Shown: positions 11,073-56,554 of the stretch, in pieces
Layout: every line of letters starts with the position of its first letter
Numbering within the stretch: position 1 is the first letter of the stretch
Assembly (NCBI GenBank): GCA_963843755.1
Contig: CAWJLS010000010.1
Location: 289,067-353,066, forward strand
DNA: 64,000 bases
Source of the DNA: an uncultured Acidobacteriota bacterium
GTDB lineage: Bacteria; Acidobacteriota; Thermoanaerobaculia; Multivoradales; DATKCC01
Direction: 5' to 3'
Notes under the pieces: generated by a model
Database searches by the model: none
The model's input: only the letters and a program-made list of their open reading frames with translations
Told to the model about the DNA's origin: nothing
Made by a program: the position numbers and the translations under genes

Positions 11073-11090
11073 ACAACGCGACGCCCGGCC

Positions 11091-11114: not shown

Positions 11115-11139
11115 GATGGCGATGCGAGGAGTCATCGAG

Positions 11140-16204: not shown

Positions 16205-16375
16205 TCGCCATGCGCACTCCAGAGACACGAGATCGCGGGCGGGGGCGTCCCCTTCCCCCCGCGAGGGTGGGAAGGGGATCGAGGGGATGGGGGGCGATCC
16301 AGCCGATGCTCAAGGTTGATGGCTGCCCCTCGCTGGTCGTGGGAGCTTCATCAGGCGAAGCGGGGGTGTGATGCC

Positions 16376-23320: not shown

Positions 23321-23442
23321 CCCGGCCGGAACGCCGGAATGGACGACTCGAACCATGGTTTCGGGGTGGCAGGGGGGATTGGGGATGTCGATGGACGGAG
23401 AGCGGATGTCGTGGCTGGGCTCAGGGCCGGGGAGGTGCGCCG

Positions 23443-26601: not shown

Positions 26602-26772
26602 TGCACGACCTCGCCGCCATCGCCCTGCTCGCGGCCGCCTGCGGCGGCTGGGTGGCGCTCCAGCGCTGGATCGGGCGCGTCGATCCGGAGATCCCGGGGA
26701 TTCAGCGGAGCTGCTCGGGGTGCTCTGTGCCGGGGGCGGGGGGGAGGCTTGTGGTGGAGGGTGCAGCGTGCC

Positions 26773-26795
26773 GGGGGGCGGGGCGGGCGGGAGGG
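26773..26795 (+). other. canonical G-quadruplex motif (five G-tracts with 1-nt loops) downstream of rnfA
   Basis: GGGGGG C GGGG C GGG C GGG A GGG at 26773-26795. A further G5-C-G7 run lies at 26732-26744. Confidence 0.5.
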
Positions 26796-27374
26796 TGGTG
26801 CAGCTTGGAGAGTCCCGTCCGGAGCCGGGCCGCCTCCGCTGAGAAGTCGCGCAGGGGGCACCGGGGTTCCTTCGGCGGGAGGTTCGCCGGGAGCGGTCCA
26901 GGAGGCGACGGCTCCGGGACGCCGCGCGAACTGGACGGGGTTGGGAGCTCAACGCGCGTCTCGACATGGTCCGCGTCGGGCCTCGATGAGCGCTCAGATG
27001 CCGTCGCGGACGCGGCCCATGACGCCCTCCACCGGCGCCTCCCGGACCGCTCCGGGTTGGAGCGCTCGTCGAGGTGGTGCAGCGCTGCTGGGGACAGAAT
27101 CGGGGCTCACTCTGCGGCGAGTCGCGTCTGGACCACCCGTTACGTAGCGTTTGTGGAGAAGGCGACGTTCTGTCCGGGTCCGAGACCGTCCCTTGGTCTG
27201 CCTGGGCTCAACCCGAGCGCACTCTGTGCGGAATTCGTCACCGAGCTCCGGTCCGCTTCGGAGGGACCCTCGGAGCTGCTGGCCCAAGTGTGCGCTCGTT
27301 CCAGGGGTCGACGAGCGGCGCGGCCCTGAGACGGAGTCAGGCTCTCGAGGCAAAGGTAGACTTCGGATCGATCC

Positions 27375-27635
27375 ATGGGTGCGAAGAGTCAACGAGAGAT
27401 CACCTCGCGGGTGATCCGGCCTGGCCAACGAGAGCCGCCCGACGAGCTCGACTGGCTCGACGCCACGCCGGCGGAGAGGATGGAGGCGGTCTGGACGTTG
27501 ACCAAGGCGTGTATCGGGTGGGGTAGTGAGGGAGTAGCGGAGCCCCGGCTCGACCGGTCAGTCAGCCGCGTTCTGCGCCCGGAGGGCGCCGTGGGGCACG
27601 GTGAGGAAGACAGAGCGTGGTCCGCCGATTCATAG
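27375..27635 (+). pseudogene. possible remnant of a small conserved protein of the type found next to or fused with nucleotidyltransferase (AbiEii-like) genes
   Basis: WLDATPAERMEAVWTLTKACIGWG....EPRLDRSVSRVLR resembles, from memory, a family ending ...RLQRSVVRV.RR that precedes NTase domains. No NTase follows here and the ORF ends in non-homologous sequence. Weak call. Confidence 0.3.
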
Positions 27636-27766
27636 GCTAAATGATCGGCTCAATCGTCCTGGCACGCTGCGTGTGCCGAAAATGTACGGTCCGTGGTTGG
27701 GGCAGGTTGTTCTGGCCGCCGGCTCTGGCCGGGTCGGGTAGCCAGCCCGTGCCGGCCGATCAGCCT

Positions 27767-28093
27767 TCAGTGGGCTTCGAGGCCGAGCGCGAAGCGGAGC
27801 GCGTCTTCGGCGGCGCCGAGCTTCCGGGGCGTCAGCGCGGTGATCCGTCGCTCGAGGGTCGCTTGCGGGATGGTGGTGATGGAGTCCAGGTTGGCGACGC
27901 AAGGCTTGGGCAGGCCGTCATCCGGTCCAAGGGGGACCTCGACCGGGATGTGGCGAATCTTGGTGGTCACCGGGGCGACGGTGCAGAGGTTGCGGACCGA
28001 GTAGGCCTCGTCTCGGGAGAGGAGGAGCACGGGGCGCCTGCCGATCGGCGAGGGGAGGTTGGCCCACCAGACTTCGCCGCGCCTCACTCCCAC
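27767..28093 (-). CDS. mazF: type II toxin, MazF/PemK-family mRNA interferase
   Basis: RRGEVWWANLPSPIGRRPVLLLSRD...VAPVTTKIR...PCVANLDSITTI, the PemK/MazF fold signature. Confidence 0.85.
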   Translation of the reverse strand: MGVRRGEVWWANLPSPIGRRPVLLLSRDEAYSVRNLCTVAPVTTKIRHIPVEVPLGPDDGLPKPCVANLDSITTIPQATLERRITALTPRKLGAAEDALRFALGLEAH

Positions 28094-28350
28094 TCCTCGT
28101 CAGCGTCGAAGGCTCCAGTCTCCGTCACCTCGGCAGCGGCGACCTCGTACTCGCTCTCGGGCTCCGCTATGTAGCCCGTGACGTAGCTGTCGACGGCTGT
28201 TTCGTAGCGTTGCTTCTCGAAGAGGGTCTCGAGCGCGCGACGAAAGAGCTCGCTTCGGCTCTCGCCCCGTCCTTTGCGCTCCACCTCCGCCTGCTCGAGA
28301 AGCTCCACCGGAAGGCTGATCGTGATCCGGGCGATCTTACGGTCGGTCAT
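28084..28350 (-). CDS. ribbon-helix-helix (CopG/MazE-like) antitoxin
   Basis: MTDRKIARITISLPVELLEQAE...RSELFRRALETL. ATG 28350 has GGAG 8 nt upstream. It overlaps the toxin start by 10 nt. Confidence 0.8.
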   Translation of the reverse strand: MTDRKIARITISLPVELLEQAEVERKGRGESRSELFRRALETLFEKQRYETAVDSYVTGYIAEPESEYEVAAAEVTETGAFDADEEWE

Positions 28351-28401
28351 GAGTGTGACTCCGTTCACGCGACGATCATACCAAAGTATGCAGACACCGC
28401 T

Positions 28402-29400
28402 TCACTCGATGTCGATCACGACCTTGCCGACGGCCTGACCGCTTTCGAGCAGGCGGTGAGCGTCGGCGGTCTGGGCGAGGGTGAAGCGGTGGGGGTCGAG
28501 GAGGGGGCGGAGGCGTTCGGTGGCGACGAGGGCGTTGGCGTGGCGGAGGATCTCGCCGTGGTGGGCGCGGCCCTGGTTGTGGATCATCGGCAGGAGCATG
28601 AGGACGATGTGGAGGGTGAGGCCCTTGGTCATCGCCGGGCCCAGGTCGTAGCTCTGCCGGGTGACGATGGAGACGACTTCGGCGTGGAGCGCGGCGGCTT
28701 CGATGGCGCGGTCGAGGTTGTCGCCGCCGACCGAGTCGAAGACCACGTCGAAGCCGGCGCCGCCGGTGATCCGCTCGACGAACGCGGCCGGCGGCTCGTG
28801 CCGGTAGTCGATCACCTCGTCGGCACCCAGCTCCCGGGCGATCCGGGCCTTTTCGGGGGAGGAGGCGGTGGTGGCGACGAGGGTCGCGTCGTCGCCGTGG
28901 GCTTTGGCGAGCTGGAGGGCGACGTGGCCGACGCCGCCGGTCCCGGCGTAGACCAGGACCCGCCGGCCGGCGAGGGTGCGCACCCGGTCGATCAGGCCGT
29001 CCCAGGCGGTGATGGCGACCAGGGGGAGCGCCGCCGCCTCACGGAACGAGAGCAGCTCCGGCTTGGGCGCCAGCAAGCGGGCGTCGGCGACCATGCGCTC
29101 GGCCAGGGAGCCCGGGATGCCGCGCAGTCCGCCCGCGCAGCCGTAGACCGTGTCGCCGGGGCGGAAGGCGGCGACCCCGGAGCCGACCTCCTCGACTGTG
29201 CCGGCGACGTCCATGCCGAGGATGCCGGGCAGCTCCGGTGCGATGGGCGAGCCGTTCCGGCGGAACTTGGTGTCGACCGGATTGACGCCGCTGGCGGCGA
29301 CGCGGATCAGCACCTCTCCCGGTCCGGGCGACGGATCGGGCAGGTCGCGGAGCGCGAAGTGGTCGGGCTCTCCGAACTGGGTCAGGACCATGGCTTTCAT
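28402..29400 (-). CDS. zinc-type alcohol dehydrogenase / quinone oxidoreductase (MDR superfamily)
   Basis: MKAMVLTQFGEPD...GEVLIRVAASGVNPVDTK...VYAGTGGVGHVALQLAK...GKVVIDI. The upstream 72 codons of the ORF track entry are unlikely to be real. Confidence 0.9.
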   Translation of the reverse strand: MKAMVLTQFGEPDHFALRDLPDPSPGPGEVLIRVAASGVNPVDTKFRRNGSPIAPELPGILGMDVAGTVEEVGSGVAAFRPGDTVYGCAGGLRGIPGSLAERMVADARLLAPKPELLSFREAAALPLVAITAWDGLIDRVRTLAGRRVLVYAGTGGVGHVALQLAKAHGDDATLVATTASSPEKARIARELGADEVIDYRHEPPAAFVERITGGAGFDVVFDSVGGDNLDRAIEAAALHAEVVSIVTRQSYDLGPAMTKGLTLHIVLMLLPMIHNQGRAHHGEILRHANALVATERLRPLLDPHRFTLAQTADAHRLLESGQAVGKVVIDIE

Positions 29401-29665
29401 GGGGCGGTCTCCTTCGCTGGGTGGTCGGTTGGGTCGGTGCGGGCGGTTCAGCGAGATCGTCGCCTGCTCTGACGGTACGGAGCAAGATCGGTGCCCCTGT
29501 CGGGGTAAGAGCCGGGCCGAGCCCGCTGAGATTCCGCCCACGCCCGTGCGACCCCGGCCGCCGTTTCCGTCCTCCCAGGTGGAGGCCTCCGGAGGGAGCC
29601 GGGGGCTTTCGGCCAAGGCTTGGGAAGGCCGACGGAGCGACTGCCACGACGACGGGAGGACGGAG

Positions 29666-30412
29666 ATGATCGAAACGACGGAGAGAGCGCAGGAGGCGAC
29701 GGATGGGGTGGAGAAGGCGGAGAAGGCGGAGGGGGTGGCCGGGTCCGGCTGCCCTTGCTGCCGCGAGCTGGAGGAGCCGGACGACGACGGAACGCCGGTC
29801 GCCGAGAAGGAGCGCCGGCTGCTCGAGGACGAGGACTGGGACGGCCTGATCGCCCTGCGGCGGCGCCAGCTCGCCCGTCATCCCGGCGAGCCCCACTGCA
29901 TCCTGCGCCTGGCGGACTCCCTCGCCGCCGCCGGCGACTACGAGACCAGCCTGGCGGTGGCCGGCGACGGCTACCGCGACCACCCGGGCGACCTCTGGCT
30001 GGAGGACGCGATCCTCGAGGCCCTGCTCGCCCTCGGCCGGAGCGAGCACGACTTCCCCTGGTACGGCGACCCGCCGCCCGTGCTGCGCTTGGACGACGCG
30101 TTGAGGGAGCGGGTCCGGAAGCTGGTGGCGGCGCACCAGGAGGAGCACGACGAGCCGTCGGACCCGTACCTGCTCTACCACGGGCTCGAGGGCGAGGCGT
30201 ACCTGGCGTTCACTCCCGGGGAGCTGATCGAGGCGCTCCGGGCCGATCCGGCGTTGGTCGTCGACGAGGATCCGGAGGCGCGCTGGCACACGTGGGTGGT
30301 GCCGGCGTCGGGCGCTTCGCCACGGACGGGGTTGACGGCGGAGGCGGCGGTAGCGGCAGAGGCGGCAGTGGCGGCCGAGACCGCGCGGACGATGGAGACG
30401 GAGCGGGCGTGA
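29666..30412 (+). CDS. hypothetical protein (acidic, helical-repeat-like)
   Basis: ATG 29666 follows GGGAGGACGGAG. Good GC3 bias. There is a CPCC motif near the N-terminus. No family recognised. Confidence 0.6.
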   Translation: MIETTERAQEATDGVEKAEKAEGVAGSGCPCCRELEEPDDDGTPVAEKERRLLEDEDWDGLIALRRRQLARHPGEPHCILRLADSLAAAGDYETSLAVAGDGYRDHPGDLWLEDAILEALLALGRSEHDFPWYGDPPPVLRLDDALRERVRKLVAAHQEEHDEPSDPYLLYHGLEGEAYLAFTPGELIEALRADPALVVDEDPEARWHTWVVPASGASPRTGLTAEAAVAAEAAVAAETARTMETERA

Positions 30413-30439: not shown

Positions 30440-31810
30440 TCAGGCGGCGGGCTCGCGGGCCGCGGCGGCGGCCCGCTGCCAGTAGTAGAGCGGCAGGCCG
30501 GCGGCCAGGGCGATGGCGCCGGCCGCGAGCTGGAAGGGGGTCGCCTCGAGCAGCAGGGCGGCGGTGAGGGCGAGGGCGAGGAGCGGGACGAGGGGACCGC
30601 CTGGGGTCCGGTAGCGATCGGTCCGCTCGCCGGGATCGCGTCGCCGCAGGACCAGGACCGCCAGGCAGGTGGGCAGGTACTGCAGGAGCCGCCCGATGAC
30701 GGCCAGGGCCGCCAGCTCGGCGAAGGAGCCGGACAGGGCGATCACGCCGACCAGGAGATAGGTCACCGCCAGGGCGACGCCGGGCGTGCCGCGGCGCGGG
30801 TGCAGCCGGCCGAGCACCGGCGGGAGGTCGCCGCGGTCGGCGAGCGCCGACAACCGGCGCGGCATGATGAGCGCGCTCGCCGCGTTGACGCCGGTGATCG
30901 AGATCACGACCGCGATCGCGACCAGCGCCCCGCCGACCGGTCCGAAGAGGATTCCCGCCGCCGCGGCGACGGCGTTCTCCCGTCCGGCCAGCTCGGGAAG
31001 GGCGGCGGCGACCACGGCGATGACGCCGCTGTAGAGGACGGTGACCGTCGCCAGCACGCCGAGGATCGAGCGGGGCAGCGAGCGCTCGGGACGGTCCATC
31101 TCGCCGGCCGGCACCACCAGGTTCTCGAAACCGACGTAGGCGTAGAGCATCAGCAGGACGGCCCGGGAGAAGGCCGGGAGCGACGGCAGCGCGGCGCCGA
31201 TCCCTTCCGCGGCCGGCGGCGCGAACGATCCGAGCGGCACGAGCGCCAGCCCGGCGGCGGCGAAGGCCACCAGCGTGGCCAGCTTGACCCCGCTCAGGGC
31301 GGTCGAGAGGGCGCCTCCGGCCCGAGCGCTCCGCAGGTTGAGCCAGGCCAGGGCGCCCAGGAAGAGGACGATGGTCACCCGGTGGCCGACGCCGGACGCG
31401 ACCGCGGGAACGAGGCGTCCGAGGGCGACGGCGAACCCCTCGACCAGCGCGCCCCAGGCGACGATTCCGGCGAGCACCGAGATCCACCCGACCGCGAACC
31501 CCGTGAGCGGGCCGAACGCCTCCCGGGTGTAGACGTAGGCGCCGCCGGTCGAGCGGAAACGGGAGGCCGCCTCGGCGAAGCAGAGGGCGACCAGGCATGC
31601 CAACACGCCGGCGCCGACCGCCACCGCCACGGTGGCGAGCGGCCCCGCGCCTCCCGCCGGCCCGCCGGTCCGGGAGACCAGGCGTCCGGCCACCGGCCCG
31701 GGCAGCAGAAAGATGCCGGAGCCGACGACGCAGTTGACGGCCAGGGCCGCCACGGCGAGGCGCCCCAGCGAGCGGGGGGGCTCCGGCACCTCCGTCGTAC
31801 GGTTTCGCAC
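30440..31810 (-). CDS. APC-superfamily amino acid/polyamine permease
   Basis: About 12 hydrophobic segments. Motifs AVNCVVGSGIFLLPG, FAEAASRF...GGAYVYT and MLYAYVGFENLVVPAGEM. The start is uncertain (GTG 31810 proposed). The ORF-track start at 32011 adds a basic, non-membrane leader. Confidence 0.85.
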   Translation of the reverse strand: MRNRTTEVPEPPRSLGRLAVAALAVNCVVGSGIFLLPGPVAGRLVSRTGGPAGGAGPLATVAVAVGAGVLACLVALCFAEAASRFRSTGGAYVYTREAFGPLTGFAVGWISVLAGIVAWGALVEGFAVALGRLVPAVASGVGHRVTIVLFLGALAWLNLRSARAGGALSTALSGVKLATLVAFAAAGLALVPLGSFAPPAAEGIGAALPSLPAFSRAVLLMLYAYVGFENLVVPAGEMDRPERSLPRSILGVLATVTVLYSGVIAVVAAALPELAGRENAVAAAAGILFGPVGGALVAIAVVISITGVNAASALIMPRRLSALADRGDLPPVLGRLHPRRGTPGVALAVTYLLVGVIALSGSFAELAALAVIGRLLQYLPTCLAVLVLRRRDPGERTDRYRTPGGPLVPLLALALTAALLLEATPFQLAAGAIALAAGLPLYYWQRAAAAAREPAA

Positions 31811-32197
31811 AACACCGGGGTGCCCGTCGCCCCACGACCGTGACAGGATGATCGGGCGGATCGCTCTCGGGTTCTTCCGGAGTTTCTTGCGAGCGGTTTT
31901 TCGCAATGTAGCTTGTGTTCTTCCTTGGGGCTCGACGTGTCGTCTATCGATCGTCTGCGGGCGCCCGATTCTGATGGATTCTGATCGAAACGGATCGGGC
32001 GTTCGCCGCACTCACGGGCGACGGCGCGGCGACCGGTCGAAGCGCGGCCGGGGGAGTCGGGTGAGGGATTTTCCGTGCGGTGGGCGTCCGTATCCCGTCG
32101 CCGACCCGATGTCGGCGGCCGGACGGTTCGCCGACGGTCTCATCAGACCGTCTCGTGTAGAGTATGGGTCTTTCACGGATCGATAGGAGACGATGGC

Positions 32198-32452
32198 ATG
32201 GATGCCACCGAAGTCGCAGCAAAGGTTAAGGAAATCATCAATAATGTGACTAGTATCCCCGTCGACGAGATCGACGACGGGGCGTCGCTCCGGGACGACC
32301 TGGACCTCGACTCCTTGTCGCTGATGGAGATCGGCGTGGATATCGACTACGCCTTCAAGCTCGGTCTCCCGGACGAGACGCTGCAGAAGATCGGCACCGT
32401 GCAGGACGCGGTCGCGCTGGTCCTCGAACACCAGGCCGTCCGCACGGCATGA
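32198..32452 (+). CDS. acyl carrier protein
   Basis: 84 aa with LRDDLDLDSLSLMEIGVDID (DSL phosphopantetheine site). RBS AGGAGA upstream. Its stop overlaps the next ATG (ATGA). Confidence 0.9.
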   Translation: MDATEVAAKVKEIINNVTSIPVDEIDDGASLRDDLDLDSLSLMEIGVDIDYAFKLGLPDETLQKIGTVQDAVALVLEHQAVRTA

Positions 32453-33711
32453 GCATCGGCGCTGGCCCCGGCTCCCCTGTCGGGAGTCGGGTCGTGGTCA
32501 CCGGGATCGGCGCGGTCACGCCGGTCGGATCCGGGCGCGAGACCGTCTGGGAACGGCTTCTCGCGGGAACCTGCGGAACCGGGCCGGTCGAGTCGTTCGA
32601 CACCTCCGACTACCCCGTGCACCAGGGCGGCGAGGTGCGCGGTTTTCGGCCCGAGCGGCACGTGGTCGCCCTCGACCCGTCCAGCCTCGGGCGCGCCTCC
32701 CAGCTCGCGATCGCCGCGGCGCACATGGCGCTCGACGACGCGGGGCCGGAGGTGCTCGCCGCCGCGGCGGAGCGCTGTGGGGTCGCCATGGGGACCACGT
32801 CCGGCGAGCCGCGGGAGATCGAGGCGCTGGACGACGACCTGGTCGCCGAGCGCCTGGGCTCCGCCGGCCCCGGGTTCATCGCCCGCTATCCCTGTCACGT
32901 GATCGCCGCCAACATCGCCGCGGAGCTGGGCTTTGCCGGAGTCAACGCCATGATCCCGACCGCCTGCGCGGCCGGCAACTACGCGATCGCCTATGCCGTC
33001 GACGCCTTGCGCGCCGGCCGCGCCGACCTGATGCTCGCCGGCGGGGCGGACTGCTTCAGCCGCATCACCTACACCGGCTTCGCGCGGTTGGGGGCGATCT
33101 CGCCCGATCTCTGCCGGCCGTTCGATCGCGACCGGCAGGGGATGATCCCGGGAGAGGGCGCGGCGGTGCTGGTGCTCGAGCGCCTCGAGCGGGCCCGCGC
33201 GCGCGGCGCCACGATCTACGCCGAGGTCGCCGGCTACGGGTTGACCTGCGATGCCCACCACATGACCGCGGCCGATCCGGAGGGAGCCGGCGGCGCCCGG
33301 GCGATGGAGCGGGCCCTGGCCGAGAGCGGTCTGCGCCCGGACGAGGTCTCCTACATCAGTGCCCACGGCACCGGGACGCCGACCAACGACCGGCAGGAGA
33401 CGATCGCCATGAAGCGGGTCTTCGGCGACGCCGCCCGCCGGGTGCCGATCAGCTCGGTCAAGTCGATGCTCGGCCACACCATGGGCGCGGCGTCGGCGAT
33501 CGAGGCGGCGGTCTGCTCGCTGGCGGTCCACACCGGGCGCATCCCGCCGACGATGCATCTCGAAACCCCGGACCCGGAGTGCGATCTCGACTACGTTCCG
33601 GGGACCGCGCGGGAGCTCTCGGTGGAGGTCGCCATGAACAACGCCTACGCGTTCGGCGGCAACAACGCGTCGGTGATCTTCCGGGCGGTCCACGAAGGGG
33701 GCGCGTCGTGA
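32449..33711 (+). CDS. beta-ketoacyl-ACP synthase (KS-alpha, FabF-like, catalytic triad intact)
   Basis: VVVTGIGAVTPVG, active-site IPTACAAGNYAI, SAHGTGTPTND, SMLGHTMGAAS, NNAYAFGGNNASVIF. Confidence 0.9.
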   Translation: MSIGAGPGSPVGSRVVVTGIGAVTPVGSGRETVWERLLAGTCGTGPVESFDTSDYPVHQGGEVRGFRPERHVVALDPSSLGRASQLAIAAAHMALDDAGPEVLAAAAERCGVAMGTTSGEPREIEALDDDLVAERLGSAGPGFIARYPCHVIAANIAAELGFAGVNAMIPTACAAGNYAIAYAVDALRAGRADLMLAGGADCFSRITYTGFARLGAISPDLCRPFDRDRQGMIPGEGAAVLVLERLERARARGATIYAEVAGYGLTCDAHHMTAADPEGAGGARAMERALAESGLRPDEVSYISAHGTGTPTNDRQETIAMKRVFGDAARRVPISSVKSMLGHTMGAASAIEAAVCSLAVHTGRIPPTMHLETPDPECDLDYVPGTARELSVEVAMNNAYAFGGNNASVIFRAVHEGGAS

Positions 33712-35048
33712 GCGGCGCGGCGACTCCGACGCGAGCCGCGGCCGGCGGCCGGCCCGTCGTCCCCGTCGTTGTCACCGGGCTGGGGGTGCTGACGGCCCTG
33801 GGAGCCACGGTCCCCGAGCTCTGGGGCGCCCTGGCGGCCGGCCGCTCCGGGATCTCGAAGATCGGTGGGTTCGACACGGCCGGCTTGCCCTGTCGCGTCG
33901 GCGGCGAGATCGTCGGCTTCGACCCGCGCGACACCCTGGGTCAGGCCAACTTCCGCCCCCTCGACCGGACGGGGCGGCTGGCCACGGTCGCCGCGGCGCT
34001 GACCCTGGCGGACGCCGGCTGGAACGGGGAGGAGCGGGGAGGGGCCGAGCTCGGCCTCGCCCTCGGCACCATGTTCGGCAGCGCCCACACGATCTCGGAG
34101 TTCGACCGGCGGGCGCTGGTGGCCGGGCCCAAGTACGCCAAGCCGCTCGATTTCGCCAACAGTGTGATCAACGCCGCCGCCGGCCAGGCGGCCATCTGGC
34201 ACCGGCTGACCGGGGTCAACGGCACGATCAGCGGCGGCACTACGGCCGGCGTCCAGGCGATCGCCTACGCGGCCGACCTGGTGGCCGCCGGGCGGGCCGA
34301 CGCGGTCCTGGCCGGCGGCGCCGACGAGCTCTGCTTCGAGTCGTTCCTCGGCTTCGTTCGCGGCGGGTTCGCCGCCGACATCGACGACATCGGCGGCGAG
34401 CACGGCAAGAGCGGGAGCGACGGCTTTGGGGGCGGGGCAGCGGTTCCGTTCCATCTCCGCCGGCGCGGCTTCCTGCCGGCGGAGGGGGCGGCGCTCCTGA
34501 TGCTCGAGACCGAGCCGGCGGCGCGCGCCCGCGGTGCCCGCATCCTGGCCGAGGTGCTGGGGCACGCCACCGCCTTCGACCCGTCCCGCGGGGCGGACCC
34601 GGAGCGAACCGCGGCGACGGTGGAGCGGGTGGTGCGCCAGGCGCTCGGCGACGCCGGGATCGAGCCCGGCGGCGTCGCCTGCTGGAGCGCCTCGGCCAGC
34701 GGCCGGCCTACCGGCGACCGGGCCGAGGCGGCGGGTGTCGCGGCGGCCCTCGGCGGGCGCGCCGCGGAGCTGCCGGTGACCGCCGTCAAGGCCTGCCTCG
34801 GGGAGGCGCTGGGCGCCTCCGGGGCGCTCCAGACGGTGGCGGCGCTGGGCGCCCTGGCGGCCGGCGAGGCTCCCGGTATCCCGGGCCTCGACGCCACGGA
34901 CGACGGCTTCCCGTTCCCCCTGGCGGGTCCGGAGGCACGGCCGGTCGACGCCCGCGGCGCGGCCCTGGTGACCGCGATCGGGCTGGACGGCAACGTCAGC
35001 GCCCTGGTGATCGCCGGGCGCAAGGATCTGGAAAGGTCGGCGTCATGA
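33708..35048 (+). CDS. KS-beta / chain-length-factor-like ketosynthase paralog lacking the Cys-His-His triad
   Basis: GTG start overlaps the KS-alpha stop (GTGA). It aligns to KS-alpha but has SGGTTAGVQ for TACAAGNY (Cys to Thr), SASASGRPTGD for SAHGTGTPTND (His to Ser) and ACLGEALGASG for SMLGHTMGAAS (His to Glu). Confidence 0.85.
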   Translation: MSGAATPTRAAAGGRPVVPVVVTGLGVLTALGATVPELWGALAAGRSGISKIGGFDTAGLPCRVGGEIVGFDPRDTLGQANFRPLDRTGRLATVAAALTLADAGWNGEERGGAELGLALGTMFGSAHTISEFDRRALVAGPKYAKPLDFANSVINAAAGQAAIWHRLTGVNGTISGGTTAGVQAIAYAADLVAAGRADAVLAGGADELCFESFLGFVRGGFAADIDDIGGEHGKSGSDGFGGGAAVPFHLRRRGFLPAEGAALLMLETEPAARARGARILAEVLGHATAFDPSRGADPERTAATVERVVRQALGDAGIEPGGVACWSASASGRPTGDRAEAAGVAAALGGRAAELPVTAVKACLGEALGASGALQTVAALGALAAGEAPGIPGLDATDDGFPFPLAGPEARPVDARGAALVTAIGLDGNVSALVIAGRKDLERSAS

Positions 35049-36889
35049 CCGAACGCCACGACGTGGTGATCCTGGGCGGCGGCATGGCGGGGCTGACCCT
35101 CGCCCGCCACCTCCTGCTCGACACGGACAAGACGGTCCTGATCGTCGAGCGCCGGGCCAGCCTGCCGCCCGAGCGCCAGAAGGTGGGCGAGTCGACGGTG
35201 CAGCTCGCCGGCTACTACCTCTCGAAGGTCCTCGATCTCGAGGAGTACCTCAACCGGGCGCACCTGATGAAGTACAACCTGCGCTTCTACCAGGCGACCC
35301 CCGGGCGGGAGAACCGCCGGTTCGAGGACTACGGCCAGGCCTACATCCGGAGCTTCTCGAACATCGCCAGCTACCAGCTCGACCGCAACCGGTTCGAGGC
35401 GGACCTGCTGGAGCTCAACCGCCGGGACCCGCGGTTCACGATCGCGCTCGGCACTGACGGCCTGGAGGTGGAGCTGGCGACCGATCGGGAGGACGAGGAG
35501 GATGGGGAGGGCCTGCCCCATACCGTCCGTTTCCGTGACGCCGACGGGACCGAGCGCACCGTCGCCGCCGACTGGGTGGTCGACGCCACCGGCCGGCGCC
35601 GCCTCCTGGCGCGGCGCCAGCAGCTCGAGCAGCCGTCCGAGATCCGCCACGGCGCCTTCTTCTGGTGGGTCGACGGGGCGCTCGACATCGAGAAGCTCAC
35701 CGACCGGTCACGACGGGAGATCCGGCTCAAACCGGAGCGCGCGGTCCTCGGTCACCTGCCGCCCTGGCTCGCCACCAACCACTTCTGCGACGAGGGCGCC
35801 TGGTTCTGGGTCATCCCGCTCCACGGCAAGACCAGCCTCGGCCTGGTCTACGACTCCGAGGTCGTCTCCCACGACGACGTGTTCTCGGTGGAGAAGGCGA
35901 CCCGCTGGGTGTGCGAGCGGTTCCCGCTGTTCGCCCGCGACCTGCCGGGGCGCAAGGTGCTGGACTTCGCCGGCTTCCGCTCCTATGCCTACGACTGCGG
36001 CCGGGTGCTGAGCCCGTCGCGCTGGGCCATGGTCGGCGAGTCGGGCCGCTTCCACGACCCGCTCTACAGCCCGGGGAGCGACCTGATCGCGCTCCACAAC
36101 ACCGTCATCGTCGACCTGATCCGGACCCCTGCGGCGGCCGAGCGCGCCGCCCGCTGCCCGCTCTACGAGCAGCTCCTGCGCGGCCTCTTCCAGGCCTACG
36201 TCCCGTCCTACGCCGGCAGCTACGACGCCCTGGGCGACCAGGAGACCTTCTGCCTCAAGTACGGCTGGGAGCTGGCGGTCTACTTCGCCTTCTACGTCTT
36301 CCCGTTCATCAACGACCTGTTCACCGAGCGCCGGTTCCTGCCGACCTACCTGCGGCAGTTCGCGCGGCTGGGCCCGTTCAACCGCTCGGTCCACGCCCTG
36401 CTCTCCGGCTACTTCCAGTGGAAGAAGGCGCGGCAGGCGGAGCGCCGCGCGGCAGGGACCGGGGCCGAGCCCGAGGAGCCGCGAGAGCCGATCTTCTTCG
36501 ATTTCATGGACTTCGGCCCGCTCAAGGCGGCCGAGTCGACGTTCTACCGGGTCGGCGTGCCGATCGAGACGGCGCGGCGGATCGTCACCGAGCAGGTGGC
36601 GAGCCTGGAGCAGATGGTCCGCCTGATCGCGGCCCGGGTCGCCGCGGTGGTCCTGGACGAGCCGCGGGTTCTGCGCAACCGGGCTTTCGTCGAGGGCATC
36701 GACCCGAACGACCAGACCTTCGACCCGCAAGCCATGGCCGCGCGTTGGGCCGCCTGTGCCGGCAGCGACGAGGAGTACCCGTGGCCGTTCGACCCGTCCG
36801 TCCTCGACCGGTTCGACCGGCCCGGTCGGCCCGGTCGGCCGGACGGGGTCGCGGTAGGCGCCGAGCCCGCGCCCACGACGGCCGGCTGA
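35045..36889 (+). CDS. flavin-dependent halogenase (carrier-protein-substrate type)
   Basis: DVVILGGGMAGL (GxGxxG), QKVGESTV (catalytic Lys-x-GES context as in PltA/CmlS-type enzymes), GAWFWVIPL (WxWxIP). ATGA overlap with KS-beta. Confidence 0.8.
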   Translation: MTERHDVVILGGGMAGLTLARHLLLDTDKTVLIVERRASLPPERQKVGESTVQLAGYYLSKVLDLEEYLNRAHLMKYNLRFYQATPGRENRRFEDYGQAYIRSFSNIASYQLDRNRFEADLLELNRRDPRFTIALGTDGLEVELATDREDEEDGEGLPHTVRFRDADGTERTVAADWVVDATGRRRLLARRQQLEQPSEIRHGAFFWWVDGALDIEKLTDRSRREIRLKPERAVLGHLPPWLATNHFCDEGAWFWVIPLHGKTSLGLVYDSEVVSHDDVFSVEKATRWVCERFPLFARDLPGRKVLDFAGFRSYAYDCGRVLSPSRWAMVGESGRFHDPLYSPGSDLIALHNTVIVDLIRTPAAAERAARCPLYEQLLRGLFQAYVPSYAGSYDALGDQETFCLKYGWELAVYFAFYVFPFINDLFTERRFLPTYLRQFARLGPFNRSVHALLSGYFQWKKARQAERRAAGTGAEPEEPREPIFFDFMDFGPLKAAESTFYRVGVPIETARRIVTEQVASLEQMVRLIAARVAAVVLDEPRVLRNRAFVEGIDPNDQTFDPQAMAARWAACAGSDEEYPWPFDPSVLDRFDRPGRPGRPDGVAVGAEPAPTTAG

Positions 36890-36946
36890 GCGGGCCCCGA
36901 GCGGCCCACGCCGACGATCCAGCGCCGATCCAGCAAGGAAGCGACC

Positions 36947-38386
36947 ATGCCCGACTTCGCACCGTCTCTCGAGACCGTCTTCGACACCGTGCCCGAGGAG
37001 GGGAGCTACCGCGCCGAGGTGGTCGACGGCACGGTGCCGGGCTTCGTCCGCGGCACCTACTACCTGATCGGCCCGGCCCGCTTCGTCCGCGGGGGGCTGC
37101 GGTACCGCCACTGGCTCGACGGCGACGGCATGGTCACGACCCTGCGGTTCGACGGGGAAGAGCGGCCGCCGCAGCTCACCAACCGCTTCGTCCGGAGCAC
37201 CAAGCTGACCGACGAGGAGGCGGCGGGCCAGGCCCTCTACCGGACCTTCGGCACCGCCTTCGACGGCGACCAGCTCCTGCGGGGCGTCGCCCTGGCCTCG
37301 CCGGTCAACGTCAGCGCCTGCTTCTTCGCCGGCCGCTTCCTGGCTTTCGGCGAGCAGGGCCTGCCCTGGGAGCTCGACCCGGTCACCCTGGAGACCCGCG
37401 GCGAGCACACCTTCGACGGCCGGTTGAACCCGTTGACGCCGTTCGCCGCCCACCCCAAGATCGACCGGCACTCCGGCGAGCTGTTCAACTTCGGCGTCTC
37501 CTTCTCCGGCAGGCGTCCGACCCTGACCCTCTACCGCTTCGGCGCCGACGGGTCGCAGATCTTCCGCCGCCGCCACGACCTGGACCTGCCGCGCTCGAAC
37601 CACGACTTCGGCCTGTCGGAGCGCTACGCCGCGTTCTACCTGAGCCCGTACGTCATGGACATGGAGGCGTTCATGACCCGCGGCACCTCGGTGCTCGACA
37701 CCCTCTCGTGGCAGCCGGAGCAGGGGAGCCACCTGCTCGTCCTCTCCCGCGAGGACGGCGCCCGGGTCGCCTCCGTTCCCCTCGGCAGCGGCTACTGCCT
37801 CCACCTGGCGAACGCGTTCGATTCCTCCGACGGCGGCAACCGGCTCACCCTCGATCTGCTGGAGCTGGAGGAGCCGGTCTACCCCGACTACCGGGAGCTG
37901 CCGAACCTGTTCGAGCGTGTCCGCCCCGGCCGGCCGGTCCGCCTGGTCGTCGACCTCGACCGGGAAGAGGTCGTCGACCGCCGGGAGGTCGCCTACCACA
38001 AGGCGTGCGACTTCCCGGCCGTCGCCCGCGCCCAGGAGACCCACCCGACCACCGACACCTGGCTGCTCGGCATCTCGAAGACCGGCGAGGAGGGGCGCAA
38101 GTTCTTGGACGAGCTGGTCCACGTCCGCTGGGACACCCCCGACGACGTCGCCGTCTACCGCGCCCCCGCAGGCCGCTTCCTGGGCGGCGAGCCGGTCTTC
38201 GTCGGGAACCCCCAGGCGGAGTCCGACCCCCGCGGCGTCATCATCGTCCAGGAGATCGATCCCGCCGAGCGCCGGAGCGCCTTCCTCCTCTTCGACGCCT
38301 TCGCTGTCGAGAAAGGCCCCATCGCCCGCCTGGCGAACCGGTCCCCGATCCCGCCCTGCTTCCACGCGGGGTTCGAGCCGGGGTGA
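36947..38386 (+). CDS. carotenoid/stilbene cleavage dioxygenase family (CCD/RPE65) non-heme iron oxygenase
   Basis: RHWLDGDGMV, FAAHPKID, SNHDFG, CLHLANAFD, CFHAGFEP (the four-His pattern of CCD/LSD enzymes). Confidence 0.85.
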   Translation: MPDFAPSLETVFDTVPEEGSYRAEVVDGTVPGFVRGTYYLIGPARFVRGGLRYRHWLDGDGMVTTLRFDGEERPPQLTNRFVRSTKLTDEEAAGQALYRTFGTAFDGDQLLRGVALASPVNVSACFFAGRFLAFGEQGLPWELDPVTLETRGEHTFDGRLNPLTPFAAHPKIDRHSGELFNFGVSFSGRRPTLTLYRFGADGSQIFRRRHDLDLPRSNHDFGLSERYAAFYLSPYVMDMEAFMTRGTSVLDTLSWQPEQGSHLLVLSREDGARVASVPLGSGYCLHLANAFDSSDGGNRLTLDLLELEEPVYPDYRELPNLFERVRPGRPVRLVVDLDREEVVDRREVAYHKACDFPAVARAQETHPTTDTWLLGISKTGEEGRKFLDELVHVRWDTPDDVAVYRAPAGRFLGGEPVFVGNPQAESDPRGVIIVQEIDPAERRSAFLLFDAFAVEKGPIARLANRSPIPPCFHAGFEPG

Positions 38387-38396
38387 GGGTGGCATC

Positions 38397-38681
38397 TCAG
38401 CCTCCTGTCGTTCCCCGTTCCAGCGGGAGCATCCGCACGCGGTACCTGGTCTCCTCGACCGTCACGGCAGCACCGTGATCGAGCGCTGCTTTGCACTCCT
38501 CCAGGGCGGAGAGGAGGAGAGGGGTCACGGTCTTGGGGGTCTGGTCCCGGACCGTGACGAGGCTGGGAAGGCTCCCGCCGCTGGCGGCGAGCAGGTCGCC
38601 GAAGTCGAGATCGAATGCGATGACCACTTGGGCTTTGTCGGCCGCGAGAGCGAGGATCTGGTTGTCGGCGAGCAGCTTCAC
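38397..38681 (-). CDS. DUF5615-like (Mut7-C/PIN-like) putative toxin, apparently shortened
   Basis: VKLLADNQ|ILALAADKAQVVIAFDLDFGDLL...SLVTVR...VTVEETRYRVRML. Its GTG start overlaps the DUF433 stop (GTGA). Compared with typical members as I remember them (about 110-120 aa), roughly 30 aa after the N-terminal LxDxN strand seem to be missing. Confidence 0.6.
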   Translation of the reverse strand: MKLLADNQILALAADKAQVVIAFDLDFGDLLAASGGSLPSLVTVRDQTPKTVTPLLLSALEECKAALDHGAAVTVEETRYRVRMLPLERGTTGG

Positions 38682-38914
38682 GCCGTGGCGGCGGGAAGTG
38701 GGCGGATCTCTTCGCTGGCGAGGAAGGCGGCGTACTGGAGGGCCTGACGGATGTCTTCTGCTTCCAGGAAAGGGTACTCGCGGAGGATCTCCGCGGTGCT
38801 CATCCCGTTGGCCACCAGGTTGACCACCTGGGCGACGCTCATGCGCAGGGAGCGCACGGTTGCTCGGCCGCCGAGGATCTTGGGATCGAAGGTGATGCGG
38901 TCGAAGCGTGGCAT
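38678..38914 (-). CDS. DUF433 domain protein (putative antitoxin partner)
   Basis: ITFDPKILGGRATVRSLRMSVAQVVNLVANGMSTAEILREYPFLEAEDIRQALQYAA, the canonical DUF433 pattern. Confidence 0.8.
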   Translation of the reverse strand: MPRFDRITFDPKILGGRATVRSLRMSVAQVVNLVANGMSTAEILREYPFLEAEDIRQALQYAAFLASEEIRPLPAATA

Positions 38915-39130
38915 GGTCTACGCCTAGTGTCCCATGGCCGCCTCGGCGCGGCCAGATGGCCTGGTCAGCTCCTTCGCGGATCGGTGAACGGAGCACCGGC
39001 GCGGAGCCGAGCGAGGCGACTTGCTACGATCGCCCGGTTGCGACGAACACTCCGCCAACGGCCGAATGGCCGCCCCGCCCGGCCCGAGCGCCTGCCCCCT
39101 CTGAGGTGGCTGAGGCGACTGAGGCGGCCG

Positions 39131-41329
39131 ATGGGATCGATGCTGCCACGCCGGCCGGATCGGTCGCGGCGGCTGCATCTCGTTCCCGTCTTCCTGGTCG
39201 TCCCGGTTGTCCTGACGGTCCTCGCGTCGGCGTGGCTCGGCTGTGCCGACCGTCGGCCGCAGGGGCCGGGGGCGGCGACGGGGCAGCCGCTCCGGGCGAT
39301 CGTGCGTCCCGAGCCCCTGAGCTTTCTGCCCCGCCGGGGTGAGCCGGTGAACCGGGATCGCCAGGTGGTGGAGGGGCTGGCCGCCTGGTTGGGGCGCGAG
39401 GTCGAGCCGGTGACCATGCGCGACCCGGAGCGGATGATCGGCGCTCTGCTCGACGGCGAGGCGGACGTGATCGCCGCCGGCATGGCGGTGACCGACGCCC
39501 GGAGCGCCCGGGTCGCGTTCTCCCTTCCGTACCTTCACGTGGACGACCTGCTGGTGGCGCCGAAGGAGCGCTGGACGGGCGATCTGTCCGCCAGCGAGGT
39601 GTGCGTGCCCCGGGCGACCGGGCCGGCGGAGTCGCTGGCCGCCCTCGCCGCCGTCCATCCCGGGCTGTCGATCCGGGAGCTGCCGCCCGACGTCCGTCCC
39701 GACCGGTTGGTGCTGCTGGTGAAGTACGGCGCCTGCGACGCCGCGGCGCTCGACTCCGAGGCCTGGGCGGCGGTGTCGCGGGACTTTCCCGGCATCGTGC
39801 CGGTGCGCACCCTGCATGAGGGCCGGCCGGTGGCCGTGGCCCTGCGCCCGGGCGACGACGCGCTCCGGCGCCGGGTCGACACCTTCCTGACAGAGGAGGC
39901 GCTCACCGGGCCGGAAGCGGTGGTCGCGCGGGACGACCTGCCGGGCATCGTGCACCGGCGGACGCTGCGCATGCTGACCCGCAACAACGCCATGACCTAC
40001 TTCATCCACCGGGGGCGCCAGCTCGGCTTCGAGTACGAGCTGCTGCAGCGGTTCGCCGAGGAGCAGGGGCTGCGGCTCGAGATCGTCATCCCGCCGAGCC
40101 ACGACGACCTCATCCCCTGGCTGCGCCAAGGGCGGGGCGACGTGATCGCCGCCGCCATGACGGTGACCCCGGAGCGGGATCGGCAGGTCGCCTTCACCCG
40201 GCCGTATCTCGAGGTGGAGGAGCTGGTGGTGGCGCGGGCGGACGCGCCGGTCGAGCGGCTGGCGGACCTGGCCGGGCGCACCGTCCACGTGCGCCGCTCG
40301 AGCTCCTTCTACCCCCGGCTGCTCGCCCTCCAGGAGGGCGCCGGGTTCAAGATCGAGCTGGCGCCGGAAGACATGGAGACCGAGGAGATCCTGGCCCGGG
40401 TCGAGGACGGCACCTGGGACGTGGCGGTGGCGGACTCGAACCTGCTCGACGCGGTCCGGCGCCTGGGGAGCGACCTCGGCGCCAGCTTGAGCCTCGGCAC
40501 CGGCCACCTGGCCTGGGCGGTGCGCGAGGACAACCCGCGGCTGCGCCAGGCCCTCGACCGCTTCCTCGCCGCCAACCGGCGGAGCCGTTTCTTCAACGTC
40601 GTCCGCCGCAAGTACTTCGAGAACGAGCGGATGATCGCCCGGGGCCGCGGCGCCTGGCGCTCCGACCGGAGCGGGCGCATCTCCCCGTGGGACGAGACGA
40701 TCCGCCAGGAGGCCGCCGCCCGGTCGCTCGACTGGCGGCTGGTGGCGGCGGTGATGTACACCGAGTCCGGGTTCGACCCGTCGTCGCGGAGCTGGGCCGG
40801 CGCCGTCGGCCTGATGCAGCTCATGCCCGGCACGGGACAGGATCTCGGCCTCGGGGACCTGCACGACCCGATCGGCTCGATCCGCGCCGGCACCGCCTAC
40901 CTGCGGCAGCTCGTCGACCGCTTCGAGCCCGATCTGCCGCTGGCCGCGCGGCTGCGCTTCGCCCTGGCGGCCTACAACGTCGGCTACGAGCACGTGCGCG
41001 ACGCCCGCCGCCTGGCGGCCCGGCTCGGCTGGTCCCCCGACCGCTGGCAGGGCAACGTGGCGCGGGCGATCGTCCTGCTGGAGCGGCCCGAGTATCACCA
41101 GGATGCCCGTTTCGGCTACTGCCGCGGCTCCGCGGCGGTGGCCTACGTGCGGGCGGTCGAGCAGCTCTACCGGATCTACGCCGAGATCGTCCCGCGGGAG
41201 CCGGAAGGCTTCCCGGAGGAGGTGCCGGGGGACGGCGGGAGTGACGGGAGCAGTGGAAGCGGTGGGCAGTTGGCGGCCGGGGCCACTCAGCCCGCCGAGG
41301 CGCCGGCCGCGACCTCGTCCGGCGTCTAG
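39131..41329 (+). CDS. mltF: MltF-like lytic murein transglycosylase lipoprotein with two SBP3-like domains plus an SLT domain
   Basis: Lipobox LASAWLGC. Two periplasmic-binding-like modules (…DVIAAGMAVTDARSARVAFSLPY… and …DVIAAAMTVTPERDRQVAFTRPY…). SLT catalytic region AVMYTESGFDPSSRSWAGAVGLMQLMPGT...AYNVG. Confidence 0.85.
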   Translation: MGSMLPRRPDRSRRLHLVPVFLVVPVVLTVLASAWLGCADRRPQGPGAATGQPLRAIVRPEPLSFLPRRGEPVNRDRQVVEGLAAWLGREVEPVTMRDPERMIGALLDGEADVIAAGMAVTDARSARVAFSLPYLHVDDLLVAPKERWTGDLSASEVCVPRATGPAESLAALAAVHPGLSIRELPPDVRPDRLVLLVKYGACDAAALDSEAWAAVSRDFPGIVPVRTLHEGRPVAVALRPGDDALRRRVDTFLTEEALTGPEAVVARDDLPGIVHRRTLRMLTRNNAMTYFIHRGRQLGFEYELLQRFAEEQGLRLEIVIPPSHDDLIPWLRQGRGDVIAAAMTVTPERDRQVAFTRPYLEVEELVVARADAPVERLADLAGRTVHVRRSSSFYPRLLALQEGAGFKIELAPEDMETEEILARVEDGTWDVAVADSNLLDAVRRLGSDLGASLSLGTGHLAWAVREDNPRLRQALDRFLAANRRSRFFNVVRRKYFENERMIARGRGAWRSDRSGRISPWDETIRQEAAARSLDWRLVAAVMYTESGFDPSSRSWAGAVGLMQLMPGTGQDLGLGDLHDPIGSIRAGTAYLRQLVDRFEPDLPLAARLRFALAAYNVGYEHVRDARRLAARLGWSPDRWQGNVARAIVLLERPEYHQDARFGYCRGSAAVAYVRAVEQLYRIYAEIVPREPEGFPEEVPGDGGSDGSSGSGGQLAAGATQPAEAPAATSSGV

Positions 41330-44489: not shown

Positions 44490-44712
44490 CCTACCCGGCC
44501 CCAGGCGAGGCGCTACCGCCGTTCGATCGGGGGCTCGGGAGCCCCGTCAGGGCCTCGCGGTGCGCCCTCTGTCCCGGTTCTCCGTATTTCTGCACATACT
44601 TCAATGTAGGCAGATCGAATCAGCCGGCCGCCCGGCCGGGTCCCGTCCCTCCGTCGGAGAACCGGAGGGCCATCCACCCAGATCCTCTCATCATGAGGAG
44701 AAGGAGAGACTG

Positions 44713-56388: not shown

Positions 56389-56554
56389 AGGGGTCCGCGA
56401 CCGCCGAGCGGCGGTCGTCCTGTGGTAGAAAGTCGTTCATGGTGCCCGGATCGGTTCGAACGAACATCGCCACGCCGAACCGGTCCGATCCGCCCCACTC
56501 CGCGCCCCTCCCGCAGCATCTCCCGACAACCTCCGTCCCCCCGGCCGGCCGTCC

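Follow-up and report, generated by a model that had tools for sequence, protein, structure and literature searches.

A five-gene carrier protein, ketosynthase, halogenase and oxygenase operon in an uncultured Acidobacteriota bacterium is the minimal version of a larger conserved gene cluster

What might a bacterium make with an acyl carrier protein (ACP), an active and an inactive ketosynthase (KS), a halogenase and an oxygenase of the carotenoid cleavage dioxygenase (CCD) family, all encoded side by side on one strand? The question is raised by positions 32198-38386 of a 64,000-nucleotide stretch of DNA, referred to here as the window, from an uncultured soil bacterium of the Acidobacteriota, class Thermoanaerobaculia (assembly GCA_963843755.1, contig CAWJLS010000010.1, positions 289,067 to 353,066 of the forward strand). 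A reading of the letters alone, hereafter the original prediction, had described a compact operon and knew of no characterised pathway combining these genes. None turned up in the searchable literature, and no description of the halogenase-CCD pairing or of this cluster was found in the full-text literature searched. The five genes form one translationally coupled, co-inherited unit, which is the minimal version of a larger conserved, uncharacterised cluster. The enzymes are of known kinds; their combination and its conservation are new.

Pfam and NCBIfam scans of the translations placed each of the five plus-strand open reading frames (ORFs) in the family first assigned to it (Table 1), and the overlaps and the intergenic gap that had been reported are present in the sequence. 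Adjacent genes overlap by four nucleotides at the ACP/KS-alpha (ATGA, 32449-32452), KS-alpha/KS-beta (GTGA, 33708-33711) and KS-beta/halogenase (ATGA, 35045-35048) junctions. The CCD gene follows the halogenase gene after a 57-nt spacer with an AAGGAAG ribosome-binding site before the CCD ATG. The window has a GC content of about 72%, and third-position GC values of 0.9-0.99 back the five operon frames. The GTG start of KS-beta at 33708 is backed by the lengths of its homologues.

This arrangement lies far beyond chance. Other genomes carry the five genes in an identical order and with identical 4-nt overlaps, a co-occurrence that the original prediction had left to be checked. A scan of one genome per species found a halogenase relative in at least 563 genomes, and the best 80 loci were examined by tblastn with the five window proteins. 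CCD genes were counted at loci with enough downstream DNA, and KS genes at loci with at least 7 kb upstream. Nearly all of these loci lie in metagenome-assembled genomes (MAGs) of Acidobacteriota (Thermoanaerobaculia, Pyrinomonadaceae and Blastocatellia), and Planctomycetota, Poribacteria and Latescibacterota are also represented. The halogenase gene is followed by a CCD gene in 69 of the 73 informative loci, which come from different species, mostly of Acidobacteriota and Planctomycetota, with a median gap of about 100 nt. ACP-KS-KS genes lie upstream of the halogenase gene in 21/56 loci. The pairing is not absolutely obligatory, since one locus (L001/L016, contig CBDFLE010000006.1, ~2.32-2.34 Mb) has a halogenase gene with neither CCD nor KS directly adjoining.

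Closest to the window are two loci, L083 and L084 (82-85% halogenase identity), which have an identical five-gene operon within the same chromosomal flanks. The 4-nt overlaps of the window operon are also found in L083 and in L002, and the same operon occurs in a 12-Mb genome, where an alpha/beta-hydrolase gene comes after it. In a neighbour-joining tree, the window halogenase falls in a subclade with L002, L013, L021, L023, L030, L034, L049 and L076, and every member has the five-gene form. The halogenase-CCD pair is the near-invariant core of the system, and we propose that the ACP/KS/KS module is its most frequent feeder.

In many relatives, this core is embedded in a longer cluster. When the ORFs of about 85 loci were clustered and the recurrent families annotated, the same-strand neighbours included HMG-CoA-reductase-like and phytoene-desaturase-family enzymes, FG-GAP/UnbV_ASPIC proteins, PlsC/DAGAT-type acyltransferases and AhpC/TSA peroxiredoxins, as well as ABC1 kinases, a patatin-like lipase, DinB, a Na+/H+ exchanger and a DAO-Rieske protein. 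Five further recurrent families have no Pfam match, four of them of ~230-435 aa and one of ~1,160 aa. At least one of the longer-cluster families lies upstream of the halogenase gene in 47 of 54 loci. The long form is exemplified by a locus of Pyrinomonadaceae (L086), in which ACP, KS, mutated KS, HMG-CoA reductase, phytoene desaturase, FG-GAP-ASPIC, acyltransferase, AhpC, halogenase and CCD genes are contiguous on one strand. This locus and two others (L085-L087) were found through KS-beta homologues from genomes whose halogenase-CCD pair had seemed to lack KS genes. L085 overlaps another locus (L031) and places the KS module upstream of the pair in a same-strand run of ~30 kb; L087 and L008 share a contig, again with the KS module upstream of the pair. 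In each case these genes extend along ~30 kb of a single contig.

The phytoene-dehydrogenase homologue is present in L085-L087, L015, L047, L066 and other related loci and is not in the window. These desaturase-like proteins match kuste3607 of anammox bacteria best (170-215 bits, 30-32% identity); Pantoea CrtI scores 58-103 bits, and kuste3336 also scores lower. kuste3607 itself failed to replace CrtI in a lycopene-production test in Escherichia coli (PMC4790861).

Four mutually unrelated families, U4, U6 and U11 (~430 aa) and U13 (~230 aa), have no Pfam or NCBIfam match and lie between the KS module and the halogenase-CCD pair. They recur with ABC1 kinases and the patatin-like lipase in eleven loci (L018, L028, L029, L035, L036, L041, L052, L062, L063, L067 and L068), in whose extracted sequences the halogenase gene stands at about 10001. 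Acyltransferase, ABC1, U6 and U13 genes also precede the solitary halogenase gene of L001/L016. Downstream, U8big (1,161 aa), DinB, the Na+/H+ exchanger and the DAO-Rieske fusion recur. Among the window ORFs compared (44452-45810, 46001-47317, 29150-30412, 8595-11072 and others), none belongs to U4, U6, U11 or U13. Genes for SEFIR/TIR-domain, CHAT-peptidase and M48-peptidase proteins near the cluster (L083 90-1496 and 14497-18245; L087 962-3946) are typical of defence islands and unrelated to the pathway.

The KS pair is where the original reading changes most. KS-alpha scores 437 bits against the FabF equivalog model, failing its cut-off of 494, and passes the looser NCBIfam subfamily model NF005589. 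Its best match in the Protein Data Bank (PDB) is 9s5h_B (484 bits, versus ~336 for FabFs and 332 for Iga11), and that of KS-beta is 9s5h_C (226 bits, versus ~178 for FabFs). By these scores the pair is not housekeeping FabF/FabB, a placement that would have counted against the original prediction. Entry 9s5h was identified indirectly: inspected by eye, its chain C shares ~85% identity with translated kuste3606 (PMC4790861), and a preprint then supplied its identity. The entry, with 9s5i, holds amxFabF2/amxFabFmut of Brocadia fulgida, the heterodimer (amxFabFhet) of the putative ladderane Cluster I, for which malonyl-ACP decarboxylation and a preference for C6-C8 chains are reported (bioRxiv 10.64898/2026.05.19.726425). 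The same work describes Cluster I as unique to ladderane producers, and it presents amxFabFhet as the first chain-length factor (CLF) in fatty-acid synthesis.

The likeness extends to the active sites and acyl tunnels. KS-alpha is 52.5% identical to amxFabF2 over 402 aa; its C173, H306 and H343 align with C165, H298 and H335, and its A172, F211, M345 and F402 are identical to the tunnel residues A164, F203, M337 and F394. In KS-beta, the triad positions are Thr/Ser/Glu. Glu replaces the second catalytic His in 120/120 KS-beta homologues, as it does in amxFabFmut, and the Cys position is mostly Thr or Val, with Gln in just 2/120. The same position of amxFabFmut is Thr or Val, split between Scalindua and the other anammox genera, including Brocadia (bioRxiv 10.64898/2026.05.19.726425). 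F149, S152 and V153 of KS-beta correspond to the amxFabFmut tunnel residues F135, T138 and V139, and F149 and V153, identical to F135 and V139, are invariant in the 120 sequences. KS-beta belongs to a large, well-conserved family (at least 50% identity), which is ~33-38% identical to amxFabFmut.

Judged by sequence, the pair therefore belongs to the FAS-like (fatty acid synthase-like) amxFabF2/amxFabFmut family, as the closest relatives outside anammox bacteria of the proposed ladderane enzymes. The earlier label of a type-II-like KS/CLF system holds insofar as an active KS stands beside a dead one; it is too loose for a FAS-like pair with Thr/Ser/Glu, not Gln, in the CLF. An aromatic type II polyketide synthase (PKS) identity was rejected on that Thr, on the lack of a cyclase or ketoreductase (KR), and on the scores of the actinorhodin KS/CLF (240 bits for KS-alpha, 96 bits for KS-beta), which fall below those of FabF. 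From its homology to amxFabFhet, the window pair should be an obligate heterodimer that primes by malonyl-ACP decarboxylation and prefers short to medium chains. The ACP is of a more ordinary kind. Its best PDB match is the FAS ACP of Streptomyces coelicolor (2cnr), it lies below every NCBIfam equivalog cut-off, and an amxACP-type identity was rejected, as it scores 25 bits to kuste3603 versus 47 bits to E. coli AcpP.

Set against Cluster I as a whole, the window operon shows both likenesses and differences. As with kuste3605/kuste3606, an active FabF-like KS sits beside a triad-less paralogue with a dedicated ACP gene upstream, and related loci, not the window, add the gene whose product scores best to kuste3607. 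In contrast to kuste3603-3608, the window has neither amxFabZ nor a B12 radical-SAM enzyme, and neither was found among the conserved neighbour families of the ~85 related loci. The active KS precedes the dead KS here, whereas the preprint gives the opposite order for anammox bacteria. The partners are a halogenase and a CCD, plus an HMG-CoA-reductase-like enzyme and an acyltransferase in the long form, and the hosts are Acidobacteriota and non-anammox Planctomycetota.

Similar combinations of a KS/CLF heterodimer and a discrete ACP build non-aromatic, polyene-type chains in the ishigamide (Iga11/Iga12) and aryl-polyene (ApeO/ApeC) systems, and some xanthomonadin and flexirubin pigments are halogenated. 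However, Iga11 is no nearer to KS-alpha than FabF is (332 and 336 bits, respectively). No part of the aryl-polyene set (KR, dehydratase (DH), aryl-starter ligase, LolA/MMPL export and a glycosyl/acyltransferase set) turned up in the window or in the conserved families of neighbouring genes, and a CCD is not known to belong to any of these aryl-polyene and highly reducing type II PKS clusters.

The halogenase could be judged from more than 3,000 retrieved homologues. The best 120 are full-length and ~56-63% identical, a few closer ones reaching 79-85%. Across phyla, the family stays ~55-63% identical. In an alignment of 25 homologues, the FAD motif GGGMAG (11-16) and QKVGES (45-50) keep G11, G13, G16, G48 and E49 invariant, and the same holds for K76 in MKYNLRF and for the WxWxIP motif, here WFWVIP (W253-F-W255-V-I257-P258). 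A conserved helical region of ~230 aa forms the C-terminus of the family. A profile search of the PDB with this alignment returned only flavin-dependent halogenases (PltA, FasV, CmlS, CndH, CtcP, ChlB4, Mpy16 and Bmp2) and one unnamed flavoprotein. It aligned K76 with the catalytic lysine, the counterpart of PrnA K79, in PltA, 8zop and CmlS; the CmlS residue is K91 in SEQRES numbering, which equals native K71 if the chain bears a 20-residue tag. The motifs first noted thus stand in part: WxWxIP and a catalytic lysine are present, but that lysine is K76 and not K46 of K-x-GES, which sits in the FAD-binding GES motif. We know of no sequence motif that separates carrier-dependent flavin halogenases from others, and the carrier-tethered class first read from these motifs is a putative one.

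Structure prediction gave a concordant picture. The AlphaFold2 model (pLDDT 85.5, pTM 0.88) was compared with the PDB by Foldseek. Of the top 44 chains, 38 belong to named flavin-dependent halogenases and six to 3nix, an entry annotated no further than flavoprotein/dehydrogenase. Target-normalised TM-scores range from 0.43 to 0.71 and are at least 0.55 for all except MalA' and CmlS. The window protein shares the FAD GxGxxG, GES, catalytic Lys and WxWxIP signatures of PltA, CmlS, CndH, CtcP, ChlB4, PltM, Bmp2 and Mpy16, and it has the fold of the non-tryptophan flavin halogenases (Foldseek probability 1.0). It differs from them in sequence (just 15-21% identity), in the extra ~230-residue helical C-terminus, in tight conservation across phyla, which is unusual for a tailoring enzyme, in its pairing with a CCD, and in a genomic context that is lipid-like rather than aromatic. 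From its sequence and modelled fold, the protein is classed as a flavin-dependent halogenase of the phenol/pyrrole 'variant B' class with an intact catalytic lysine, and halogenation is its predicted activity.

The family first given for the fifth protein is upheld by a full-length RPE65 domain (299 bits versus a gathering cut-off of 27; residues 14-476 of 479). Its predicted iron ligands H169, H219, H286 and H473 align with the ligand motifs of the apocarotenoid-15,15'-oxygenase (ACO) of Synechocystis, and the four His are kept in 55-56 of 56 family members. The best PDB matches are ACO (2biw, 141 bits) and an archaeal CCD (NdCCD, 6vcf), with the stilbene oxygenases NOV1/LSD at ~100 bits. The lignostilbene-dioxygenase equivalog models were missed by wide margins (NF053778, 153 versus a cut-off of 800 bits; NF053780, 135 versus 650). 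The full-length seven-bladed domain and the four His are shared with ACO and NdCCD, and the alignment runs end to end, yet similarity is low, and the window CCD has an ACP, KSs and a halogenase as operon partners and no carotenoid genes nearby. The residue before its conserved Glu136 is Gly; stilbene oxygenases have a substrate-binding Lys at this position and ACO has a Trp. The protein is assigned to the CCD/RPE65 family with an intact four-His site. Cleavage of a C=C bond is the predicted reaction, with an isomerase or isomerohydrolase of the RPE65 type as a possible alternative.

Taken together, the five genes are read here as a minimal form of an ACP-dependent, lipid-type pathway that is widespread, chiefly among Acidobacteriota and Planctomycetota, a reading to which we give a probability of roughly 0.55. 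The ACP would be phosphopantetheinylated and loaded with malonate by the housekeeping AcpS and FabD, neither of which is encoded here. If the homology to amxFabFhet holds, KS-alpha would self-prime by decarboxylating malonyl-ACP and then elongate the chain, and the dead KS-beta, with its conserved tunnel-constricting residues, would shape the acyl tunnel and hold the chain to a short or medium length of ~C8. Reduction and dehydration may be borrowed from FAS II, yielding an enolisable or unsaturated chain; in the longer clusters, the HMG-CoA-reductase-like and phytoene-desaturase-like enzymes may replace or extend FAS II. The FADH2-dependent halogenase could then place Cl or Br on an electron-rich carbon through a K76 chloramine, and the four-His CCD could use O2 to cut a conjugated C=C bond, releasing an aldehyde or acid fragment. 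We infer that the substrate of the halogenase and CCD, or its precursor, is the short, unsaturated or enolisable chain carried by the ACP. The pathway probably yields a lipid-like molecule that bears halogen and has been cut by oxidation, and the product originally speculated on, a halogenated polyene-type chain cut to give an aldehyde or acid, is plausible.

Several observations weigh against this pathway. The operon has no KR, DH, enoyl reductase (ER), thioesterase, flavin reductase or phosphopantetheinyl transferase (PPTase), which leaves chain processing and release unexplained. To our knowledge, CCDs take free polyenes or stilbenoids of at least C20 rather than short acyl or ACP-bound substrates, and flavin halogenases of this class act on phenols, pyrroles and enols, not on plain alkenes. 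We know of no product for any member of the cluster. For some 60% of the halogenase-CCD pairs, no KS gene stands within 7-10 kb, and the substrate of the pair might therefore come from a source other than the KS; two of these pairs proved to have a KS module at a greater distance upstream on their contig. The ACP resembles an ordinary FAS ACP and not amxACP, and the one product shown for amxFabFhet in vitro is acetoacetyl-ACP (bioRxiv 10.64898/2026.05.19.726425).

Two rival explanations propose other substrates, and neither agrees as well as the lipid-type pathway with the type of KS, the coupling of the genes and their neighbourhood. In one, an unreduced tri- or tetraketide would become a phenol of the phloroglucinol, orsellinate or pyrone type, which would be chlorinated and cut by the CCD at an alkenyl-phenol bond. 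Phenol chlorination has precedents in ChlB4, PltM, CtcP and RadH, and alkenyl-phenol cleavage in the stilbene and isoeugenol oxygenases. In sequence and in structure, the nearest relatives of the halogenase all use phenolic or pyrrolic polyketide-type substrates, KS/CLF pairs self-prime by malonyl decarboxylation, and the lack of KR, DH and ER suits an unreduced chain. We nonetheless regard a halogenated aromatic polyketide as unlikely, given a KS pair of the FAS-like amxFabF type with a Thr-bearing CLF and below-FabF actinorhodin scores, no cyclase or aromatase, and a CCD nearer to ACO than to NOV1/LSD and far below the lignostilbene model. A short aromatic ring would also offer the CCD no exocyclic conjugated C=C bond, and the neighbours in full clusters are of a lipid type (acyltransferase, patatin and desaturase-like). 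In the other, the pair would tailor a carotenoid-like polyene made elsewhere, and ACP/KS/KS would supply an acyl group, for example for esterification, or be a separate matter. That most halogenase-CCD pairs lack an adjoining KS would suit this, as would the affinity of the CCD to apocarotenoid oxygenases and the phytoene-desaturase- and HMG-CoA-reductase-family genes of many related clusters; ABC1 kinases with DAGAT-type acyltransferases are reminiscent of plastoglobule carotenoid and prenyl-lipid metabolism. It is a doubtful proposal all the same, since conserved 4-nt overlaps couple ACP, KS, KS and halogenase, no terpene synthase, phytoene synthase or prenyltransferase occurs in any of the ~85 loci, and the desaturase-like proteins are nearer to kuste3607 than to CrtI. 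We know of no halogenated carotenoid.

Ladderane-type lipid synthesis, the label that an automated caller of biosynthetic gene clusters (BGCs) would probably apply, can be rejected because radical-SAM and FabZ enzymes and an anammox host are all missing. The KS pair, and the desaturase-like gene of related loci, are homologous to Cluster I genes, and 'ladderane' BGC calls outside anammox bacteria exist in the literature, where they go unexplained. However, no radical-SAM enzyme or amxFabZ occurs in the window or the related loci, the ACP does not resemble amxACP, the hosts belong to Acidobacteriota and not to the anammox bacteria, and the invariant partners, halogenase and CCD, are foreign to Cluster I; ladderane synthesis proper is thus highly improbable here. 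It is equally improbable that FAS paralogues and unrelated oxidoreductases have come together by chance without sharing a pathway, as a FAS-like ACP and a KS-alpha that passes a generic FabF subfamily model might have suggested. Many species keep the gene order, strand and overlaps, the dead KS-beta has persisted as a large conserved family, and KS-alpha stays under the FabF equivalog cut-off. Co-conservation effectively refutes this explanation.

A broader version of the lipid-type pathway may be tentatively considered, in which the ACP/KS/dead-KS module, with or without the desaturase-like enzyme, is an older and widespread lipid-tail module that feeds the halogenase and CCD in Acidobacteriota and Planctomycetota and gives rise to a new class of halogenated, cleaved lipids or signals. 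An unsaturated short acyl chain might be chlorinated and then cut by the dioxygenase at or beside the halogenated double bond. If this is true, the non-anammox clusters would be the first genetically approachable system for the shared intermediate, with a bearing on how ladderane synthesis starts.

Whatever the product, a large conserved family of uncharacterised clusters is now defined, with a halogenase family encoded in at least 563 species-level genomes. Its core, a flavin halogenase followed by a carotenoid-cleavage-type oxygenase, is unprecedented, and its carriers are abundant, mostly uncultured soil and marine phyla. The KS/CLF heterodimer thought to be specific to ladderane producers has close homologues in many non-anammox bacteria, often with a desaturase-like partner, which changes the reading of Cluster I. 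These carriers offer comparative, possibly culturable systems for the ladderane question. As the smallest natural version of the pathway, the window's five-gene form is also the construct best suited in practice to heterologous expression and to reconstitution in vitro.

Table 1. Genes and signals of the operon, in window positions.
Feature	Position	Strand	Basis
Acyl carrier protein, 84 aa, DSL phosphopantetheine attachment motif (LDLDSLS)	32198-32452	+	Pfam PP-binding, 42 bits
KS-alpha, active ketosynthase of the amxFabF2 type, 420 aa, Cys173/His306/His343	32449-33711	+	ketoacyl-synt N and C domains
KS-beta, triad-less, chain-length-factor-like, amxFabFmut type, 446 aa, GTG start	33708-35048	+	ketoacyl-synt N and C domains
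Flavin-dependent halogenase (predicted), 614 aa	35045-36889	+	Pfam PF04820 Trp_halogenase, 48.5 bits versus cut-off 21
CCD/RPE65-family non-haem iron oxygenase (predicted), 479 aa	36947-38386	+	Pfam RPE65 (PF03055), 299 bits
Ribosome-binding site AGGAG, 8 nt 5' of the ACP ATG	32185-32189	+	sequence reading; invariant in L083 and L084
Promoter-like element CTCGTGTAGAGTA (TAGAGT, -10-like) in the 186-nt divergent intergenic region	32152-32164	+	invariant in alignment with the L083 and L084 upstream regions

Upstream of the ACP gene, three short blocks (GGTGAGGGA, GGGCGTCCGT and CTCGTGTAGAGTA; 32060-32091 and 32152-32164) are kept in the two closest relatives. They are possible regulator or promoter sites in a region common to the operon and the divergent permease gene. 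A promoter role for CTCGTGTAGAGTA is suggested by its conservation alone; a scan for consensus sigma-70 promoters and terminators found nothing meaningful. An Rfam scan of 31500-39200 gave no match.

Both flanks are as originally described. An APC-type amino-acid permease gene (30440-32011) diverges from the operon, and a toxin-antitoxin-like pair of DUF433 (38678-38914) and DUF5615 (38397-38741) genes converges on it from the minus strand, between the CCD gene and an SBP_bac_3-SLT gene. The pair is missing at the same position in L083 and L084 and is therefore a recent insertion 3' of the operon. The reported lack of KR, DH, acyltransferase (AT), cyclase, thioesterase and PPTase genes is also upheld: neither these nor a flavin reductase were found among all credible genes scanned in the 64-kb window, with the caveat of a zinc-dependent alcohol dehydrogenase (Zn-ADH)/medium-chain dehydrogenase/reductase (MDR) family oxidoreductase at 28402-29616 (-), the only possibly relevant neighbour. 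This family includes enoyl reductases. The gene lies two genes upstream of the operon, a position that it keeps in L083 and L084 and not in other lineages, and it could be a lineage-specific helper or merely syntenic. The permease, Zn-ADH and SBP-SLT genes were rejected as pathway members, being syntenic in the two closest relatives only and not family-wide.

Beyond the flanks, the surroundings of the operon are devoted to primary metabolism (Rnf complex, PFOR-like fusions and a GH20 hydrolase). A long plus-strand run of anaerobic-type energy genes (5143-26011) encodes two proteins resembling pyruvate:ferredoxin oxidoreductase (PFOR), one of them a 1,775-aa fusion with ferredoxin and thiamine pyrophosphate domains (11044-16371), an RnfB-like Fe-S protein (16205-17266), a 1,343-aa Fe-S protein in a stretch of 78% GC (17853-21884), RnfC (21752-23320), RnfD (23191-24504) and an RnfA/E-type subunit (25337-26011). 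Between this run and the operon, a MazF/PemK-type toxin gene (27767-28093, -) is accompanied by a likely antitoxin ORF (28084-28368, -). The 26400-28400 stretch, where codon-position GC gives a weak signal and both GC skew and AT skew are unusually strong, may be a small foreign island. Further downstream, a PIN-PhoH (PhoH2) gene is called at 56429-57883 (+). All named relatives of this PhoH2 protein (70-81% identity) come from Thermoanaerobaculia MAGs, which places the window in that class and not, as its ~72% GC might suggest, in an actinomycete such as Streptomyces. The homologues, of 442 aa, cover 91% of the ORF, which puts the true start ~40 codons downstream of the first in-frame start.

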